Source of the DNA: Candidatus Sericytochromatia bacterium
Lineage (GTDB): Bacteria; Cyanobacteriota; Sericytochromatia; UBA7694
NCBI GenBank assembly: GCA_037968875.1
Contig: JBBKWI010000197.1
Coordinates: 6,748-70,747, forward strand
DNA length: 64,000 nt
Reading direction: 5' to 3'
Shown: piece after piece, positions 10,695-56,760 of the stretch
Numbering within the stretch: position 1 is the first letter of the stretch
Layout: each line of letters begins with the position of its first letter
Notes under the pieces: model-generated
What the model saw: only the letters and a program-made list of their open reading frames with translations
What the model was told of the DNA's origin: nothing
Databases searched by the model: none
Position numbers and translations under genes: made by a program

Positions 10695-11842
10695 TGCATA
10701 TCACTTTCTTTGGGGTTCAACGAACGTTGTAAAGCACGGATATAGTGAATCACGGCCCAACGCTCATCACGCGTCAATTGTTTGGCATAGCCTGGCATCA
10801 GATTTTGGCCATAAGTCATGACGTGGTAAATTCGGCCGTCGGTCCACTGTTCCGCCACTTTGGGTGAATGTAGACTTAAGCCATTCAAACCGACATCAGC
10901 TGGCAAACGGCCATCGCCCTGAGCATAATAGCCATGACAAACTGAACAACGGGATTCATACTTTTCTTTACCCAGTTCAAATATTTCTTGAGACTGCGGC
11001 AAAGGATTCACCAGATACTTACCCATTTCATCGGCTTGATCTTTGCCAAATGTTTCAGGCAAATAACCACGCGGAATCGTATAGTCTACGGGCTGCTGCA
11101 TGGAACGCTGATCTTTAAAGACCATCTTAGTTTCTTGCGCAACCGCTCTGGGCTGAACTGACATCCAGTTAAAAGGCGGCATAAAAACCATCCGATTGAG
11201 GCCAAAATAACCAGCACCGGATACGGTAATCGCCACGACTACAGCAAACCCCAGGAAAAGCGGATTGGCTAAAGACAATCCTGAACGGGCTTCTTTGACA
11301 TCATAATATACCGGAATAATCGTCTTTGCACCCAGGTTTTCCAACATTTCACGGGCAGATACTTCTTCAAAACGCTCATCTGCGGCCTCAATACAGAGAC
11401 CAAACATATCATCAGAGGTTCGCTGCATATAAGCCGTATCATGTAGGGGGTGATTATTACGAGGGAAACCTGAAACAATCAGGAATAAGATCAGTACCGT
11501 GCCTACAGCACCGGTTAAAACCAAAACTTCAAATAGAATCGGAATATAACCGGGTAGACTAAAGTAAGGCTTACCCGCCCAAACATTGGGGTAATCAACT
11601 AAAGATACCCAGGCAATAAAGGACAGCATCAACAACATACAGGTGGTCCCTATAATTAAGGTTAACCAACCCATTCCAGATTCACCCAAACCCATTGCAT
11701 CATCTAAACCATGCAGTGGGTAGGGCGTGTGCGCATCGAATTTACGATAGCGCTTGCGTGCGGTATCTGCCGCATGCAAAATTTCTTCAGGCTTCTCAAA
11801 GAGGCCAGTTAAAGCATAGAGTTTTTGCTCTTGTGCGCTCAT
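10691..11842 (-). CDS. actD: ACIII ActD membrane subunit fused to a C-terminal mono-haem cytochrome c (ActE-like)
   Basis: The N-terminal half has 2-3 TM helices. The C-terminus carries CSVCHG haem c and MPGYAKQL (Met ligand region). 4-bp overlaps on both sides. Confidence 0.6.
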
Positions 11843-13302
11843 GCAGGTTGACCTCCAATAATAGTGGCTTCTGTATCCACTGGATCTTCTTCATGGTGAT
11901 GGTGAACTTGCGCGCCATCCATCACACTTTTGACTTCAGCAATCGAAACCACTGGCATAAATTTCACGAACAAGAGTGTCAGCGTGAAAAACATGCCGAA
12001 GCTGCCGAGCAACAGCATGAAGTCGACCAGGGTTGGGTTGTACCAACCCCAGCTCGAAGGCAAAAAGTCACGGGCCAGTGAAGTCACGGTAATAACGTAG
12101 CGTTCAAACCACATCCCGATATTCACGAAGATTGAAATAACAAACATAATCGGTACCGAGCGACGCAATTTACGAAACCAGAACATTTGCGGACTGATCA
12201 CGTTACAAGAAATCATAACCCAGTACGCAAAAGCATAAGGACCAAAAGCCCTGTTAATAAAGGTAAATTGCTCAATCAGGTTACCTGAGTACCAGGCAAT
12301 AAAGAACTCCATACCGTAAGCGTATCCGACTAGCGTACCGGTCAAAAGAATGATTTTATTCATTTTCTCTAAGGTATCGATTGGAATCAGATGCTGCATA
12401 TCAAAGATATAGCGAATGAAAACCAGCATGGTTACCACCATCGCAAAACCAGAGAAAATAGCACCGGCGACGAAATATGGTGGGAAAATCGTGGTATGCC
12501 AACCGGGCAGACCAGATACCGCAAAGTCAAAAGAAACGATCGTGTGAACCGAAAGCACCAGCGGAGTCGAGAGACCCGCCAAAATCAGATATACTCGCTC
12601 ATAGTGGCGCCAGTGGCGATTTGAAAAGCGCCAACCGAGGCTCAGCACTGAGTAAATCGTTTTACGGATTTTGCTGACCATGTCCTTGCCAAGCGTGCGA
12701 TCACGCAGGGTGGCGAAATCAGGGATCAAACCGGTATACCAGAAAAACAAAGACACCGTAAAATAGGTCGAAACCGCAAAGACATCCCAAACGAGGGGTG
12801 ATAAGAAGTTGACCCAAACAGCGTGTTTGTTGGGGTAAGGCATTAAATACAAAGGAAGAAATGGGCGGCCCGTATGAAACAGCGGGAACAAGCCCGCACA
12901 CATAACTGCAAAAATAGTCATGGCTTCAGCAAAGCGCGCAATCCCGTTACGCCATTTCTGTCTGAATAAAAACAAAATCGCTGAGATCAGAGTGCCTGCG
13001 TGGCCGATACCGATCCAGAAAACGAAGTTGACAATTGGGAAGGCCCAGGCCACAGGGACGTTATTGCCCCACATGCCTGTACCGTAATAAAAGCTAATTC
13101 CCCAGCCAACAAGCTCTACCATCAGTAGAGCAACTGAAAAAGCAAAAGCGATATACCATTTCAGGGTCGCTTTGGTTTCAATTGGGCGGGAAATCACCTC
13201 CGTAATATCGTGAAGCGTGGGTTGTTTCAAAACGACGGAGGGCTGGACGGAAAAATCAGGATGTCCGTCAGGGAGTGTATTGGGTTTTTTGGCTACCTGC
13301 AT
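11839..13302 (-). CDS. actC: ACIII subunit ActC (NrfD/PsrC-family membrane subunit)
   Basis: 487 aa polytopic protein with a NrfD-like helix pattern. Immediately downstream of actB. Confidence 0.75.
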
Positions 13303-49991: not shown

Positions 49992-50105
49992 TGCCTCCGT
50001 GGTCTCAGTCTACTGCCAGTTTTTTGAAGTGACAAGCACAAGCAAACTGGCCGTTGCTGGAATCAAGCAACGGCCAGAAGTAATCAAAGAGTAAGAAGGT
50101 CTTGG

Positions 50106-51884
50106 TTAGAGCCCTTTGAGTTTGAGATAAGTCTCCAAATAGGCTTTGTATTCGTCAGCCAACGAGCTGCTATGCGACTGTAATAGGCCATCCAATTGCT
50201 GACGTGCCTGCTCAGCCGTGACTTTGCCTGTAAGCACTGAGGTCAGTAAAGTTACCACCTTGGCGTCTTTGATATTATTGAGATCCTGATTCAAAATCTC
50301 TTGAAAAGACTTCTCTAAGACATCGCTTTTCTCTGTGCCCGTGACCGGATCCGTATAGTTAATCGTCAGCTTAAACTGACCGCTGCCGAGCGTCGATTCG
50401 CCGTCCGTTTTGAAGCCTTCCAGAAAATACTGCGAGGTATTCGAAGAAAAGTGAATCGGCTGGACTTCACTGGCCACTTGCGAAGATTGCTCTGCCGCAG
50501 AATGTGTCCGTTCTAAACCAGCAGGATAGTCCAGGCGAAAGCGGACATCACGGGCTGCGATATCGACCAAAGAGAGAAAACGTTCTCCAAAAGCACGTGT
50601 GGCGTCTTTCTCAGTGATCACCGAGAAATAAGTCCCTTTACCTGCTTCGGTCAGGGTATTCAAAAATCCTTCATTAAAACGCTCTCCAAAGCCCAGGCCT
50701 GAGAAATAGATCCCTTCGAGGTCATTAATCCGTGCATTTTCAGAAATCACGCTAGCATCGACGCTGCCCTGATTGGCAAAGGCATCCGTCAACATAATCA
50801 CGCGATTGGTTTTCTTGGGGTCAAAAATCTTCTGGGCTTGCTCATAACCGGTTTTGAGGCCCGCATTTAAATTGGTGCCCCCCTCGGTTTTGAGAGCATC
50901 GATCGCTTTATTCCAGGCAGAAGCATCCCCTGAATAAGCCAGAGCATCAATCAAGATACGCGTGCCCGTCGAAAAAGTCACCAGACTGACCACATCGCCC
51001 GCTTTCAATTGTTGGGGCAAGGCTTTTAAGCCTTTTTTGGCAATCTCCAATAAGCTATTAGCGCTGCCATTTTCGCTCAGAGCAACAGAACCATTATTCA
51101 TTGAGCCAGAAACATCCAGGACCAAGGTTAAAGCCAAATTCCGGCGCTGTGACAGGCTCGTTTCCGGCCCGACTACATGCACGCCCAGATCATAAGCTGT
51201 TTGATTGTCTTGACCCGGAGTCTGGTGCTGCCAGAGCCCCATCGATACTTTAAAGGTTTCTTTTGTTTCTAAGCCTTGTTGTGCAAAGGGCTCAAAACTC
51301 AAGAACTCCCAGGGACGCACCCAGGAAGCCTGCGGCAGCGAAGGAGAAGCTTTGCTCAAAGCGAATTTGGTTTGCTCAACCCCGGCCGTACTGGCTGAGT
51401 CGTCATAAGAAAAATAGAAAAATTGCTGATTCTGCTGGACTTCAGCTGAAGCCGAAACCGTAGGAGTCGGTTCTGAACTGGCGCTAGCCGAGGCTTGAGG
51501 TTTCGGCTGTGCCGTAGCTTCTGCCGTAGGCTGCGGCTCGGGTTGGCTAATTATTGCACTACTATCGTCGGCTGCAGTCGGTGCTGGTGCGCCTGCGGCA
51601 ATATCGGTTCCGGCACTATAGCCGCCGCCAGTAGTCTGATTCACGCCGGCAACTTCACCCTCCATATTTCGGCTTTTATCAGCTCGCTGCATCGCTGAAG
51701 TCGGTAGATTCAAACCCAGATTAACCCCATCCAAGGGCTTGGGACCTTTGGGTTGCGGTGTAATCCCGAGACTAGAGCTAGGGCGAATATCTGAGGGATT
51801 CACATTAGTGCCACCAATATCACTACAAGCTGTATTTAAACTTAAGGCGAGCAAGCCCACCACAGTCCAGGTTATTTTCTTCAT
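50106..51884 (-). CDS. Secreted/lipoprotein von Willebrand factor A (VWA) domain protein with low-complexity N-terminal region
   Basis: Signal peptide (..LSLNTAC). A/P/T/S-rich region of about 150 aa. VWA MIDAS motif LVLDVSGSMNN...TNL...MLTDAFAN. Confidence 0.7.
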   Translation of the reverse strand: MKKITWTVVGLLALSLNTACSDIGGTNVNPSDIRPSSSLGITPQPKGPKPLDGVNLGLNLPTSAMQRADKSRNMEGEVAGVNQTTGGGYSAGTDIAAGAPAPTAADDSSAIISQPEPQPTAEATAQPKPQASASASSEPTPTVSASAEVQQNQQFFYFSYDDSASTAGVEQTKFALSKASPSLPQASWVRPWEFLSFEPFAQQGLETKETFKVSMGLWQHQTPGQDNQTAYDLGVHVVGPETSLSQRRNLALTLVLDVSGSMNNGSVALSENGSANSLLEIAKKGLKALPQQLKAGDVVSLVTFSTGTRILIDALAYSGDASAWNKAIDALKTEGGTNLNAGLKTGYEQAQKIFDPKKTNRVIMLTDAFANQGSVDASVISENARINDLEGIYFSGLGFGERFNEGFLNTLTEAGKGTYFSVITEKDATRAFGERFLSLVDIAARDVRFRLDYPAGLERTHSAAEQSSQVASEVQPIHFSSNTSQYFLEGFKTDGESTLGSGQFKLTINYTDPVTGTEKSDVLEKSFQEILNQDLNNIKDAKVVTLLTSVLTGKVTAEQARQQLDGLLQSHSSSLADEYKAYLETYLKLKGL

Positions 51885-53086
51885 TTTTGATTCTCCTTCA
51901 GCAATTTTTCAAAGGCCAGCGGGCGTTGACTGCGTAAAAACTCTAAGTCAGGATCACGTTGGGCTTCTGAGCGAATATGGGCATCGGAATCGTGCCGAAA
52001 AGCACGCGCTAAAGCCAGCAGAGCTCGCTCTAAATCGGAAGCATCAGAAGCAGTCTGGGCATGATCTGCGGCCTGCTGACGCTGGCTATGCAAGCAAGCC
52101 TCTAGATAATGCACCAGCCAATAATCAGGATTAAAGGCTGAGAGTAAGCCCAGAGTAAGCTCAGCCTGGTCATAGTGCTGGGCCTGGGTATAAGCATGGG
52201 CCAAAAACGCAGCCGACTCCATCAGGGGCTGAGGCCCCAGACTTTCTTTTTGGGGGTTGGTTAAGAGACGGCGATAGGCCTGAATAGTTCCTTCCCAGGC
52301 AGCTGGCTGCTGGAGTAAATAGGCCCGGTTAAATAATAAGCGGGCGTATTCATCCTGAATATAAACATCTTCGGGCGCCTGAACCAAAGCCTCTTCAAAG
52401 TGAGTCAAAGCACTTTGATAGCCTGCTAAGGCTTGCTGTTTCGCTTCAAGAGATCCAGCGGCAGCCTCAGGCATCTGATGATGGGCTTCCATAAAGTAGA
52501 TCGCACCTAAGTTAAAGGTCAAATCACCAAGGGAAACTGAATCCGAAGCCTGCATTTGGAACTGTTTAAGAGCCGTCTCTTGATTGATGCGAGCAGCCTG
52601 ATAATTGCCTTTACTGAGCTCTAATTGGGCCAATAAGGACTGCATTTGTACGGTTTCAGTAAATTGCTGCAGCCCGCTTTGGATACGCTCCTGGGCCTGT
52701 GTGTAACGCTCAGAACGGATCAAGGCCATCATCAAGCGGGAGTAGATCTGGAAATTATCGGGCTGCAGACTCAGGGCCTGCTCATAGCTTTGGAGCGCAT
52801 CTTGATAAGCATTCATCGCTCGCGCATTCATGGGTGCAAAACCCGACAAAACCAGAAGTTCATCGCGCAAAGGCTCAAACTCACCTGAATTTAAGGATTC
52901 GGCCAGCTTCAAAACCACTTCACGTGACGGCTGACGCCCTCCAGATTCCAAAAGGGAGATATAGGATTTGGAAACGCCAATCTGCTCAGCTAGTTTTTCC
53001 ATATTCAGTCCTTTTTCTTTGCGTAAAGCAGCCATTCTTATAGAGAAAGGACTCTTTCCGATCGACTTTTGTTTCCTTTTGGGCAC
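51881..53086 (-). CDS. XRE-family HTH transcriptional regulator fused to TPR repeats
   Basis: HTH motif MEKLAEQIGVSKSYISLLESG. Multiple TPR-like A/Y/L repeats. 4-bp overlap with the VWA gene. Confidence 0.75.
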   Translation of the reverse strand: MPKRKQKSIGKSPFSIRMAALRKEKGLNMEKLAEQIGVSKSYISLLESGGRQPSREVVLKLAESLNSGEFEPLRDELLVLSGFAPMNARAMNAYQDALQSYEQALSLQPDNFQIYSRLMMALIRSERYTQAQERIQSGLQQFTETVQMQSLLAQLELSKGNYQAARINQETALKQFQMQASDSVSLGDLTFNLGAIYFMEAHHQMPEAAAGSLEAKQQALAGYQSALTHFEEALVQAPEDVYIQDEYARLLFNRAYLLQQPAAWEGTIQAYRRLLTNPQKESLGPQPLMESAAFLAHAYTQAQHYDQAELTLGLLSAFNPDYWLVHYLEACLHSQRQQAADHAQTASDASDLERALLALARAFRHDSDAHIRSEAQRDPDLEFLRSQRPLAFEKLLKENQK

Positions 53087-53185
53087 TTTTTTTCTCCTTT
53101 TTCAAGCATGCCCAGGCCTAAATTCAGAGGAGAATTTAGGCCTGGCTACTTTGGTTTAAGTCAGAAACAGTTTTATTTTAATCGC

Positions 53186-54265
53186 TTAACGAAGCGCTTC
53201 TGGGGGCAATGGAGCCGGTCCCGGCTCAATATCTTCGCCAAAATCTAGTTTGCCAGTATACAGCAGCGGCCGATTGAGATTTAATATCGCTCCGCTGACT
53301 GCATCGATCTCAACAAAGCCACTGGCATGACGTTCACCCGCATTAGAGGATCTCGTCAAAAAATTCACCGTAACAAAATAGCGACTGCTTTGTTCCTGGT
53401 TTTGGTTGAGCTGAATCTGCCACTGGGCGTCACTCGGAATCTGGGTGATGATTTGCTGATTGGGGTAGGCCCGCTCAGGGTAAACCGGATAACCCGGATT
53501 ACTGGCAGTGCTTTCAAGGGCCGCTTTGGCTTTGCGTTGAGCCGCATCGCTGTCCAGGCTCACTTTACTCAGATCTAAATTGGGCTCCCCCCAGACCATG
53601 CGATGTACACGAGTCTCTTTGTCAGTTAAATAAACCAGCAAACTTTCTTTGCGCTTGTCTGAAGTCCAACGGAATAAATAATTGAGCTTGATTTGAGCGG
53701 GTTTGCCATTGTCATCAGGCAAGAAAAAGTCGTGTTCAGGACTGGCCGAGGCTCCCAAAAAAGCCTGACTTTCAGACAGTCTCGCGCTAGCGTCCCACTC
53801 TTTCATTAAGGGCTGTGCCGCTTGCTGATAAGCCGTTAGCAGAGATTGGGCTTTACTGAGCGGGAAAATACTTTCTTCGGCAAATTGTAAGACATATTGA
53901 TCAAAAGTGCCCCAGCCATAGCCGGGCATCATCAAACGCTCAGCACTGCTACCAGGAATACCTGATGCAGACGCATCTTGCCCAGCACGCTTCGGGGCTG
54001 AGATCGCGCCACCAGCTGTCGGGACAGTTGCAGCAGCCGGAGCAGAGCCTGTTACATTATTCCCATCAGCGCCTGATTCGGCTGTTTGACCGAATAAGTC
54101 CACTGAGAGACTGCGCTTACTCAGGGCGTTGGCAAACAAACCCTTGCCCGTTTGCTCGCCGTTGTTTACAGAAGGTGAAGCCGAGGGCTGAGTTGAAGGG
54201 CCACCGGGTAGATTAACGCCCTGGCAGGCCGTCAAAAAAGTAAGACTCAAGAGTAGACGTTTCAT
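53186..54265 (-). CDS. Lipoprotein of unknown function (paralogue 2 of tandem pair)
   Basis: Lipobox LTAC. Shares FDQYV.QFAEE, SEWDASARL.ES, RVHRMVWG.PN and NPGYPVYPE blocks with the upstream paralogue. Confidence 0.5.
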   Translation of the reverse strand: MKRLLLSLTFLTACQGVNLPGGPSTQPSASPSVNNGEQTGKGLFANALSKRSLSVDLFGQTAESGADGNNVTGSAPAAATVPTAGGAISAPKRAGQDASASGIPGSSAERLMMPGYGWGTFDQYVLQFAEESIFPLSKAQSLLTAYQQAAQPLMKEWDASARLSESQAFLGASASPEHDFFLPDDNGKPAQIKLNYLFRWTSDKRKESLLVYLTDKETRVHRMVWGEPNLDLSKVSLDSDAAQRKAKAALESTASNPGYPVYPERAYPNQQIITQIPSDAQWQIQLNQNQEQSSRYFVTVNFLTRSSNAGERHASGFVEIDAVSGAILNLNRPLLYTGKLDFGEDIEPGPAPLPPEALR

Positions 54266-55452
54266 TCGCGATCTCCAATCTGAGGAGCGGCCCCTCCATC
54301 CGTAGCAGAGGCAGAGTCCATCAGCTCAGGGGGAGGCCCCTCAGGACCTGGATAGCCCGGATAGGAAACGCCGCCACCATCATACTGACGGTAAATCACC
54401 GGACGGTTTAAGCTTTTGATTTCGCCCGTAATGGCATCGATCTCAATCGAACCACTCAGGTATTGATAAGGCGGGGCTATCGGGCGCGCAGGTGAAACAG
54501 CAACTCCGACAGGAGCATCCATCAATGCAGGCTCAACACCCAAAGGCATAGGATGCGGAACAGGAATCGGCAACGGCACGCCATCATTTCCCTGGCGAAA
54601 ATTAAAGTGCAAGAAATAACGCAATTGATCGCGGCTCTGTTGATTTAAACTCAGGTTCCAACTCAGCTCCTGTGGGAGTTCGTAGACCACCTGAGCACTG
54701 GTATCATTGGCCTCCGGGTAAACTGGATAGCCAGGGGATTGCGCACGGCTAGCAAAGGCTTTGCGGGCAATCTCCAAAGCCCGATCCGAATCAATTTTAA
54801 CCCGTGCGATTTCAATATTAGGTGAGCCCCAAACCATACGATGCACACGAATTTCCTTTTCAAGCACATAGATATTTAAAGTTTCTTTTTTAGAGCTTGA
54901 GGCAAAACGATAAACATAGAGTGGACGCAAACGTAGGGGTTTGTTTTCGTCCTGGCCAGGTAAATATATATACTCGTCGTCAGTGCCATTGACTTGTGCT
55001 CTACTCTCCAGCAGTCGGGCAGAAGCATCCCACTCGCTCAAAATCGGCTTGACGGACTGATTATAGACCTGCAATAAACTCGTGCCCTTAGGAGCTCCAT
55101 AGAGATTCTCTTCAGCAAATTGAATCACATATTGGTTAAAGTCATGCCCACCATAATAATAACCTGGCGCAATTGCTGGGCGAGAGACCGCAATATCGGC
55201 ACTGATAGCAGTGGCGACTTGAGCAAGACCAAAAGCAGGACTCTCAGCTAAAGCAGCAACAGGGACCATTTGACCATTGATCCGTGCCAAAGCCAGAGGG
55301 CGTTTTTGTAAGGCTGAAGCCAGAACCACGTGTTGACTTTGAATTGAGCTTGTTTGTGCGGCTTGTTGAATAGATCCATTGGGAATCGGGCCTGAGCAAG
55401 CCACCAATAAACTACTACAAAGCAAAGCAGAACATATGATGCGATAGGACAT
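54262..55452 (-). CDS. Lipoprotein of unknown function (paralogue 1 of tandem pair)
   Basis: Lipobox LVAC. Same conserved blocks as paralogue 2. 4-bp overlap with it. Pro/Gly-rich C-terminus. Confidence 0.5.
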   Translation of the reverse strand: MSYRIICSALLCSSLLVACSGPIPNGSIQQAAQTSSIQSQHVVLASALQKRPLALARINGQMVPVAALAESPAFGLAQVATAISADIAVSRPAIAPGYYYGGHDFNQYVIQFAEENLYGAPKGTSLLQVYNQSVKPILSEWDASARLLESRAQVNGTDDEYIYLPGQDENKPLRLRPLYVYRFASSSKKETLNIYVLEKEIRVHRMVWGSPNIEIARVKIDSDRALEIARKAFASRAQSPGYPVYPEANDTSAQVVYELPQELSWNLSLNQQSRDQLRYFLHFNFRQGNDGVPLPIPVPHPMPLGVEPALMDAPVGVAVSPARPIAPPYQYLSGSIEIDAITGEIKSLNRPVIYRQYDGGGVSYPGYPGPEGPPPELMDSASATDGGAAPQIGDRE

Positions 55453-55615
55453 AATAGAGAACCTCCAAAGTTAAGCTAATAAAACCAGCTTAGCATTATG
55501 TTTACATCATGTCAACAAGACCACCTAATGTAAACAACAAACCTTTTGGAAATCGGCCTAAAAAAAAATGACCGCCTAATCTAGACAGTCATACAAGGTT
55601 AAATCAAAGGTTAAA

Positions 55616-56095
55616 TCAAAAGGTTGCAGGAACCTGATATGATCTGCGATTGATAGATTGTTGCGGAGCCAGAGCGTTTTGAAAAACACGCTGAAAATTG
55701 AAGAAGCTCATGACATACCAAACCAGGAAAAAGGGAACCGCTAAAACAGCGGTTAAGAGCAGTGAGCTTTCAGTGGCTGCTTGAAACAGAGTAGAGAAAA
55801 ACAGAGTCGCGATAAAAGCAGTGTAAACACGCAGATCCAGGTTTAACAAACGTTCGATCCAGAGAGCAATACCGCTACTCTGAACTTGCACAGGCAATTG
55901 AGCAGTACGAGCTGGGCGATAAGCGAACTGGTCGCCTTGTTGGTAAGGCATGTAGGTTTCACCACCGGATTGGCGGTCGGGGCTACTGCCGCCAGATTTC
56001 AAAGCCGTTTGAGAGGCCTGGAAACTACCGCGGTTTTGAACGTTTTGTGCGCTTGTTAATTGCATCTTGTTAACCTTTTCTGAAGGCGCGAACAT
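55616..56095 (-). CDS. Hypothetical membrane protein
   Basis: 159 aa ORF. Polar N-terminus, then hydrophobic segments in the C-terminal half. Confidence 0.4.
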   Translation of the reverse strand: MFAPSEKVNKMQLTSAQNVQNRGSFQASQTALKSGGSSPDRQSGGETYMPYQQGDQFAYRPARTAQLPVQVQSSGIALWIERLLNLDLRVYTAFIATLFFSTLFQAATESSLLLTAVLAVPFFLVWYVMSFFNFQRVFQNALAPQQSINRRSYQVPATF

Positions 56096-56253: not shown

Positions 56254-56760
56254 ATGGTTAAGAATAGATTTTTATTGCTTTACCTTGGGCTCTTTTGCAG
56301 CTGTCAAAGTCCCCTTGAGCACCTGAATACTGCTCCCATGAACCCAACGAGCTTAACCCGGCAGACTGTTTTTAGTGCCAAAGAAGGTTTAAGCGAAGCC
56401 CAGGGGCTAGCCAGCCAATGGGCAACTGATGCACGCCTCTTTAAAGTATCTAGCCCCTGGGTCGAGCAAGGAGGCCTCAGCAGTGAGTGGAGCTATCACT
56501 TTTATTCAAATCAAGCCATCAGCACATTCGTTGTCAAAGAGGGAGCTGGACTGACTGTTAGCAGCACACCATCAGCGACTTACCTTAGCCTAAAAGCAGG
56601 CTGGCTCGATAGCTCGCAAGTGACAGCTTTTACTCAAGTCAAAGCTTTTCGCTTTCCTTTATTGTCTATGCAAATTGATGCCGACGGGATCTGGCAGATA
56701 CGAACTGAATTTCAGACCTTGACTGTCACTGCTCATCCCAACAGTCAAATCTCCCCTTAG
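56254..56760 (+). CDS. Hypothetical secreted protein
   Basis: 168 aa with an N-terminal signal-like segment. AT-rich promoter-like region upstream. Confidence 0.4.
   Translation: MVKNRFLLLYLGLFCSCQSPLEHLNTAPMNPTSLTRQTVFSAKEGLSEAQGLASQWATDARLFKVSSPWVEQGGLSSEWSYHFYSNQAISTFVVKEGAGLTVSSTPSATYLSLKAGWLDSSQVTAFTQVKAFRFPLLSMQIDADGIWQIRTEFQTLTVTAHPNSQISP

Follow-up and report, generated by a model that had tools for sequence, protein, structure and literature searches.

A lineage-specific gene module of Sericytochromatia joining an undescribed lipoprotein family to an HTH-TPR regulator, a VWA lipoprotein and a putative operator

Controller (C) proteins of restriction-modification systems and phage-type XRE repressors work through tandem palindromic operators that lie over the -35 box, and XRE-type dimers bind paired inverted half-sites in that position. 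For the YfbK-type VWA lipoproteins, we know of no assigned function. None is given in the Pfam descriptions or in the literature that we retrieved, which likewise held nothing on a system such as the one described here or on what YfbK does; a passage in one preprint reports low conjugation efficiency for a yfbK mutant and nothing further on YfbK (bioRxiv 10.64898/2026.07.26.740846). Here, we describe a four-gene module at positions 50106-55452, minus strand, of a 64-kb stretch of DNA from a Candidatus Sericytochromatia bacterium (contig JBBKWI010000197.1; the whole stretch is hereafter called the window). The module consists of two paralogous lipoprotein genes, for which we coin the names parA and parB, a gene for a regulator with a helix-turn-helix (HTH) domain and tetratricopeptide repeats (TPR), and a gene for a lipoprotein with a VWA domain and a metal ion-dependent adhesion site (MIDAS). 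Sericytochromatia are an uncultured, non-photosynthetic sister lineage of the oxygenic Cyanobacteria, and their envelope and gene regulation are barely known.

The par module and its products

The genes and hairpins of the module are as follows (ORF, open reading frame; aa, amino acids).

54262-55452, minus strand: parA, 396-aa lipoprotein of an undescribed family (ORF table)
53186-54265, minus strand: parB, 359-aa paralogous lipoprotein (ORF table)
53112-53145, minus strand: hairpin between parB and the regulator gene, with a perfect 14-bp stem, a 6-nt loop and no U-tract
51881-53086, minus strand: HTH/TPR regulator gene, 401 aa, with a GTG start behind AAAGGAG (ORF table, Pfam)
50106-51884, minus strand: VWA/MIDAS lipoprotein gene, 592 aa (ORF table, Pfam)
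50047-50077, minus strand: terminator-like hairpin 3' of the VWA gene, 12 pairs, 8 of them G-C

An earlier note on this DNA had described most of this layout, and its description holds. The two lipoprotein genes overlap by 4 bp, as it said, and their products are paralogous (BLASTP aligns them end to end at 33% identity, E 1e-62), while the conserved blocks that it had picked out in both, F[ND]QYV.QFAEE, EWDASARL.ES, RVHRMVWG.PN and [NS]PGYPVYPE, turn out to be nearly invariant columns of a 37-sequence alignment. The gap of about 100 bp that it reported ahead of the regulator gene measures 99 nt, and Pfam recovers the proposed fusion of an XRE HTH to TPR as HTH_3 plus TPR_19. The 4-bp overlap between the regulator and VWA genes and the 592-aa VWA/MIDAS lipoprotein are confirmed by the ORF table, a VWA_2 match and a full MIDAS, and the A/P/T-rich spacer of the VWA protein is visible in the translation at residues ~85-150. 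The note had recognized no domain in the paralogues; neither ParA nor ParB is matched by any Pfam or NCBIfam model.

Gene order was counted in the tblastn table over the Sericytochromatia and Blackallbacteria loci long enough to show it, about 11 distinct ones. We observe the order parA-parB-HTH/TPR-VWA on one strand in L001, L002, L004, L005, L007, L008, L010, L011, L012, L015 and L017, with module proteins ~50% identical to those of the window, whereas the outer flanks vary both upstream (HEAT/GT2/HflX or UbiA) and downstream (DUF2283/TylF, a TPR protein, FGase or TrkH, the last being that of the window). The second par subfamily member adjoins the first in every locus, and the 4-bp HTH/VWA overlap is retained in the called genes of L001, L002, L004, L005 and L007. 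The four genes are a lineage-specific conserved module of Sericytochromatia, in line with the dedicated four-gene arrangement proposed earlier: the paralogues show only a sub-threshold, PepSY-like C-terminal motif in place of a known family, and their neighbors within the module are constant rather than freely varying. The G+C content is even across the region and so gives no sign of recent foreign origin.

The module also has a narrow distribution. The par family gave 55 matches in a word-indexed search of 5.8 billion clusters, 101 matches at E <= 1e-3 when 1.84 billion representatives were searched exhaustively with a profile, and 12 loci when a single genome was scanned for each GTDB species, all 12 titled Candidatus Sericytochromatia, Blackallbacteria or Cyanobacteria bacterium UBA7694. 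With 51 matches, the HTH-TPR family is as narrow as the par family and its named taxa are identical, all named matches among the 55 and the 51 being Sericytochromatia or Blackallbacteria; the two families are co-distributed, with matching narrow distributions. For the metagenome scan, the diverse alignment A4 was too divergent, and the narrower alignment A5 gave five loci.

With respect to the lipoproteins, the lipoboxes LLVAC (ParA) and FLTAC (ParB) mark both as predicted substrates of Lgt and LspA, and the lipobox cysteine (C19) is invariant in 37 of the 37 paralogue sequences. The par-family profile found nothing better than E 0.6 among PDB sequences. The AlphaFold model of ParA, with a mean predicted local distance difference test score (pLDDT) of 71 and core residues ~100-290 and 330-355 mostly above 85, predicts an N-terminal beta-hairpin, a disordered linker, two alpha/beta lobes (core ~100-355), and a proline-rich disordered insert and tail. 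Structurally, the best matches are to sandwiches of the Mog1/PsbP/DUF1795 type rather than to PepSY. In the Pfam scan, sub-threshold PepSY (PF03413) matches occur in 14 of the 37 family members (best E 0.0027) and are confined to the C-terminal strand motif EIDAxTGxI; the gathering threshold of 24 bits is reached by none of the 37, with the ParA of the window at 12.6 bits (E 0.18). We conclude that the Par proteins form a lipoprotein family not described before, in which the C-lobe is PepSY-like but degenerate, and that by Pfam score they are not members of PepSY. Two further relationships were rejected, namely an internal duplication of N-lobe and C-lobe (hhalign probability 0.2%) and a WDxxARL lobe shared with the 168-aa lipoprotein encoded nearby (56254-56760), for which hhalign aligned a 16-residue motif only (probability 0.8%).

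The regulator matches HTH_3 (PF01381) at residues 19-66 (E 2.3e-14, 53.6 bits against a 23-bit cut-off), which places it in the XRE family, and TPR_19 (E 5.9e-13). Some 7-8 TPR-like helical pairs follow the N-terminal HTH, and its all-helical model (pLDDT 91) predicts an XRE HTH, a short linker and a TPR superhelix.

The fourth product matches VWA_2 (E 3.5e-14) and also VWA_3 in Pfam, and it is built from a lipobox (LNTAC), a conserved ITPxPKGP motif, the A/P/T-rich spacer, a pre-VWA domain, the VWA domain and a C-terminal domain. Its MIDAS is complete, with DxSGS (as DVSGS), the T in GGTN and the D in LTDA. The lipobox cysteine is present in 12 of 12 orthologues, and the MIDAS is conserved in 11 of the 12, the same fraction that keeps the lipobox, ITPxPKGP, pre-VWA and MIDAS residues together. 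Neither the VWA protein of the window nor its orthologues match PF12450 (vWF_A) or PF12034 (YfbK_C, DUF3520). The protein of the window nonetheless aligns with a canonical YfbK-type protein (vWF_A+VWA+YfbK_C) along 280 aa of the pre-VWA and VWA regions at 32% identity (E 2e-34), so that it is, as judged from sequence, a divergent and distant relative of the YfbK type. Its nearest solved relative by sequence is ITIH1. In the L005 orthologue (11520-13211), none of the MIDAS residues survives (it reads DTSSAL, and both the T and the D are missing) and Pfam gives no VWA match; its lipobox and pre-VWA domain are kept.

A conserved promoter and putative operator

The elements 5' of parA are listed here in the direction of transcription.

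55487-55535, minus strand: promoter and putative operator
55535-55530, minus strand: half-site GTTTAC, followed by N24
55515-55510, minus strand: -35 box TTGACA, inside the GTTTAC-N24-GTAAAC element
55505-55500, minus strand: half-site GTAAAC, inside the -35/-10 spacer
55492-55487, minus strand: -10 box TAAGCT, after a 17-nt spacer

DNA 5' of parA was aligned from 14 distinct loci. Within a poorly conserved background, we observe one conserved block, tGTTTAC-n3-AAGT-n6-GTTGACA-n3-TGTAAACA-n5/6-GCTAnACT, which contains TTGACA, a 17-18-nt spacer and TAnnCT, that is, a canonical sigma-70 promoter. A simple promoter scan had picked TTTACA-17-CATGAT; this was set aside for TTGACA-17-TAAGCT because the latter pair is conserved across the 14 loci. 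The inverted half-sites GTTTAC and GTAAAC are 24 nt apart, and the -35 region GTTGAC forms an imperfect palindrome with GTAAAC. In the 64-kb window, GTTTAC-N20-26-GTAAAC has a single match (55500-55535), with 0.04 expected. Each locus carries the element a single time, immediately 5' of parA in every case, and no other part of the intergenic DNA is as well conserved; the full element is present in 12 of the 14 distinct loci and the proximal TTGACA-N3-TGTAAAC in all 14. The earlier note had placed the module under its own HTH-TPR regulator, and a conserved palindromic operator over the parA promoter would fit such control.

Distant par-like profile matches (25-40% identity) come from AT-rich Cyanobacteriota metagenome-assembled genomes (MAGs), and these extend the comparison beyond the core clade. 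Single par-like genes are found in L019, L020, L022, L026 and L029, and L023 has a tandem par-like pair, such a recurring pair being typical of hetero-oligomers. In L021, a par homologue of 30% identity is flanked on either side by a canonical YfbK-type VWA gene (vWF_A+VWA+YfbK_C), and adjoining this group is an HTH-TPR homologue, transcribed divergently, which the family profile matches at E 5.6e-40; the three families being rearranged together points to a functional link rather than inherited synteny. The third par-family gene of the genome of L016 (L019, 6629-7921) is 40% identical to parA and stands between fliS and an lpxA-like acyltransferase gene, with no VWA, HTH-TPR or operator at that locus.

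The distant clade has its own layout of half-sites, [TTTAC-N6-GTAAA]-N8-[TTGAC-N6-GTAAA] followed by a -10 box. This layout precedes the VWA-par-VWA cluster of L021, where an extra TTTAC-N6-GTAAA adjoins the divergent regulator gene, and it occurs twice in L023, the second copy directly before the par-like pair. Furthermore, the par-like gene of L029 is preceded at a distance of 76 nt by a TTTAC-N6-GTAAA palindrome, and TTGAC-N5-GTAAA and TGTAATAT lie before a distant HTH-TPR gene in L025; TTTAC-N6-GTAAA was absent from the other 26 loci scanned. Shuffles of L021 gave an expectation of 0.03 for the -35-linked pattern, and the palindrome with 4-8-nt spacing has four matches there against 0.30 expected. 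Since motif, regulator family and target families co-vary across clades, the HTH-TPR protein of the operon itself would be the most economical candidate for the binder of the putative operator. The first operator/promoter copy of L023 (2329-2500) is followed only by a 21-codon hydrophobic ORF, MVDLYTEFVIVFLYVVLSHL, which could be a leader peptide or a chance occurrence.

The terminator-like hairpin at 50047-50077 marks the end of the operon. The hairpin behind parB has counterparts at the same place in L005, L006, L010 and L017 that are non-homologous in sequence; in other clades, the regulator gene follows parB without a gap, and in several of them parB abuts or overlaps the GTG start of the regulator. 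This hairpin is probably a partial terminator or a stabilizer of the transcript 3' end that sets the ratio of Par to regulator and VWA protein. Rfam at the gathering threshold and a tRNA scan gave nothing relevant.

Proposed circuit and alternative explanations

We propose an autoregulated operon, repressed by its own HTH-TPR protein and yielding an envelope lipoprotein assembly, and we would give this scheme an even chance of being right. As a dimer or a dimer of dimers, the HTH-TPR protein would occupy the half-sites over the -35 box and spacer and occlude RNA polymerase, a negative autoregulation, and its TPR groove would bind a ligand, probably peptide-like, by which repression would be relieved or strengthened. 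From the open promoter, ParA and ParB would be made and anchored in a membrane, probably as a hetero-oligomer since their pairing is conserved. In the clade of the window, the post-parB hairpin would keep Par in excess over the regulator and VWA protein, which would be made in smaller amounts. The MIDAS of the latter might then engage an acidic residue of the Par pair or of an external ligand, the outcome being a periplasmic or surface binding or scaffolding complex of Par and the YfbK-like VWA protein. The scheme is supported by the single sigma-70-type promoter, the tight or overlapping genes, the terminator after the last of them and the lipoprotein signals of three products. Further support comes from the constant gene order between differing flanks, the matching distributions of the par and HTH-TPR families, the regrouping of the three families in L021, the putative operator and its half-sites in the distant clade, the invariant lipobox cysteine, the MIDAS kept in 11 of 12 VWA orthologues and the second tandem pair, that of L023.

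Several observations weigh against this scheme. The L005 orthologue of the VWA protein lacks a MIDAS, and the par-like genes of L019, L020, L022 and L026 have neither a VWA nor an HTH-TPR gene within 8 kb. Because such genes exist, the Par fold is not strictly dependent on VWA, and the link to the module is not obligatory for every par-like gene. L011 and L017 have the proximal half of the operator only, and the AT richness of the distant clade raises the chance of TTTAC/GTAAA words, although the shuffles still expect only 0.03-0.3. The regulator has no membrane segment and is predicted to be cytoplasmic and soluble, which leaves no evident route from the envelope, and the module encodes neither an importer nor a transducer. 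The conserved element could also be bound by a regulator encoded elsewhere. All mechanistic steps of the scheme, from what binds the operator and whether control is negative to the complex and what it does, are inferred.

Of the alternatives, a circuit like those of the RRNPP family survives best, though we regard it as distinctly unlikely. The HTH-TPR protein would here sense an imported peptide derived from the operon's own secreted proteins, for example from their disordered Pro/Ala/Thr-rich segments, and the operon would respond to cell density or extracellular proteolysis. An N-terminal XRE HTH followed by C-terminal TPR over ~400 aa is the architecture of NprR, PlcR and AimR, and the three co-encoded proteins are all predicted to be exported and all have disordered segments. 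However, no short propeptide gene lies beside the receptor, the overlapping gene encoding a 592-aa lipoprotein and the 99-nt gap holding only the hairpin, and the module does not encode an oligopeptide permease. In addition, no family model beyond the HTH matches (AimR, E 0.065), and RRNPP systems are known from Firmicutes and their phages.

It is improbable, in our estimate, that the module serves protease control or maturation, with Par as a PepSY-propeptide- or YpeB-like inhibitor or chaperone of an extracytoplasmic hydrolase and the VWA protein as its cofactor or substrate. The weak PepSY matches on EIDAxTGxI in 14 of the 37 members, with a best E of 0.0027, are consistent with such a role, as are two serpin genes that follow the L021 cluster, but every PepSY match is under the Pfam gathering score, the best structural matches are of the Mog1/PsbP/DUF1795 type, and no peptidase gene is conserved in or beside the module in at least 11 loci. 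The serpin genes of L021 (11710-14321) stand with two small lipoprotein genes after the VWA-par-VWA cluster; from these neighbors, a protease-related role may be considered.

Equally improbable is synteny without shared function, by which the genes would be linked through genome kinship and the regulator would control something else: full copies all come from one class and several distant par-like genes stand alone, but the four genes stayed linked and translationally coupled while both flanks were reshuffled, the three families were reassembled in a different order in L021, and operator half-sites track par-like and HTH-TPR genes across clades. Membership in known defence systems or Bat/MoxR operons is excluded: the PADLOC Control_protein models match the regulator HTH (E 1.3e-5), with the other components of the module matching no anti-phage model, and the MoxR AAA+ ATPase and DUF58 genes are absent from the module in every locus.

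A wider version of the autoregulated-operon scheme, which we consider unlikely as it stands, would make the module the core of a so far unrecognized regulon of non-photosynthetic Cyanobacteriota, in which the HTH-TPR protein, as a cytoplasmic sensor, reads TTTAC/GTAAA palindromes and governs a heteromeric complex of ParA/ParB, a new lipoprotein fold family, and a YfbK-type MIDAS protein at the surface or in the periplasm. Were this regulon to exist, it would offer a first way into the function of the widespread, uncharacterized YfbK family, and the TPR domain might monitor unexported, disordered precursors of the lipoproteins of its own operon, a form of feedback. The interpretation given in the earlier note is partly supported overall, its role in sensing and adhesion being a guess from domain types.

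The HTH, TPR and VWA domains themselves are ordinary; new are the family of Par lipoproteins, the putative operator, and the conserved coupling of Par both to a YfbK-type protein and to an HTH-TPR regulator dedicated to the module. The locus offers a family of lipoproteins that lacks a counterpart in Pfam, NCBIfam and the PDB, a recurrent genomic link from that family to YfbK-type VWA lipoproteins, and a regulator-operator pair predicted from comparative data that can be tested in vitro without culturing, and with the operator motif the whole regulon can be delimited in MAGs. This is not a new principle of biology but a well-delimited, lineage-specific system that deserves annotation as a unit.

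Neighboring genes and comparison with known systems

Upstream of the operon, the window contains the following features.

55568-55592, minus strand: hairpin, terminator of the 159-aa protein gene
55616-56095, minus strand: gene for a 159-aa protein with two predicted membrane helices and a conserved soluble N-region (SSxDRQSG, YMPYQQGD)
56254-56760, plus strand: 168-aa lipoprotein gene, divergently transcribed and adjoining the 159-aa gene

The 159-aa gene is a clade-specific neighbor in a separate transcription unit, outside the conserved core. It is found upstream in L004, L005, L006, L008, L009, L010 and L011, in the last of these 2.4 kb further upstream, and the 168-aa lipoprotein is detected in the tblastn table only in L005, L006, L009 and L010; neither protein has a family match at threshold in Pfam or NCBIfam. 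Just past the stop of the 159-aa gene lies a tandem 12-mer, CTTTGATTTAAC, in two to three copies (55597-55621, minus strand), with the terminator at 55568-55592 directly following. This repeat is conserved as DNA in the window, L004, L005, L006, L008 and L010 despite ~50% protein identity. When the unit is extended by one base to a 13-mer and searched with up to one mismatch, the window contains it twice, where 0.09 occurrences are expected. The repeat could serve as a site for protein binding, either to the DNA or to the 3' untranslated region.

In the Blackallbacteria-type loci, the slot upstream of parA is taken by one to four tandem genes for a secreted ~145-aa protein (L002, 6080-7817; L007, 4236-6595; L001, 7393-7845), which carries the motif VKPVQNKALDF...SPS..DSWG and is unrelated to the 159-aa protein. 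Elsewhere in the window (45873-46878), a 2-oxoacid:ferredoxin oxidoreductase gamma-like ORF overlaps the gene for a 170-aa membrane protein, a pair that is annotated in L004 as POR and DUF4381; DUF4381 is usually found in Bat/MoxR-VWA operons.

Compared with described systems, the module shares single parts with several of them. PepSY proteins (M4 propeptides, YpeB) have no counterpart of the Par N-terminal lobe or of the AEE, WDxxARL and RVHRMVWG blocks, and the Par module differs from them in having no linked partner peptidase or lytic enzyme and only matches under the family threshold. From YycH/YycI of the WalRK operon, to which Par has no sequence similarity that we could find, the module differs in having no histidine kinase, no membrane-spanning partner, and a predicted lipid anchor in place of a transmembrane helix. 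With the RRNPP regulators NprR, PlcR and AimR, the regulator of the window shares the HTH-TPR fusion; it differs from them in having no adjacent short propeptide gene and no family-level match, generic TPR proteins scoring higher, and it belongs to a cyanobacterial sister lineage, with its putative operator in the promoter of its own operon. The likeness to C proteins and XRE repressors lies in the XRE HTH and in paired inverted half-sites that together span ~35 bp and overlap a -35 box, that of the operon to which the regulator itself belongs, provided that the regulator does recognize them; the match to C proteins is limited to the HTH, whereas the regulator of the window adds a 320-aa TPR domain and is encoded beside genes for envelope proteins rather than a restriction enzyme. 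Finally, the VWA protein has in common with YfbK-type lipoproteins a lipoprotein signal, a pre-VWA domain with a VRxxE-type motif and a VWA domain with an intact MIDAS, whereas it falls below the vWF_A and YfbK_C models and is set apart by its long A/P/T spacer, its distinct C-terminal helical region and its translational coupling to a regulator gene.

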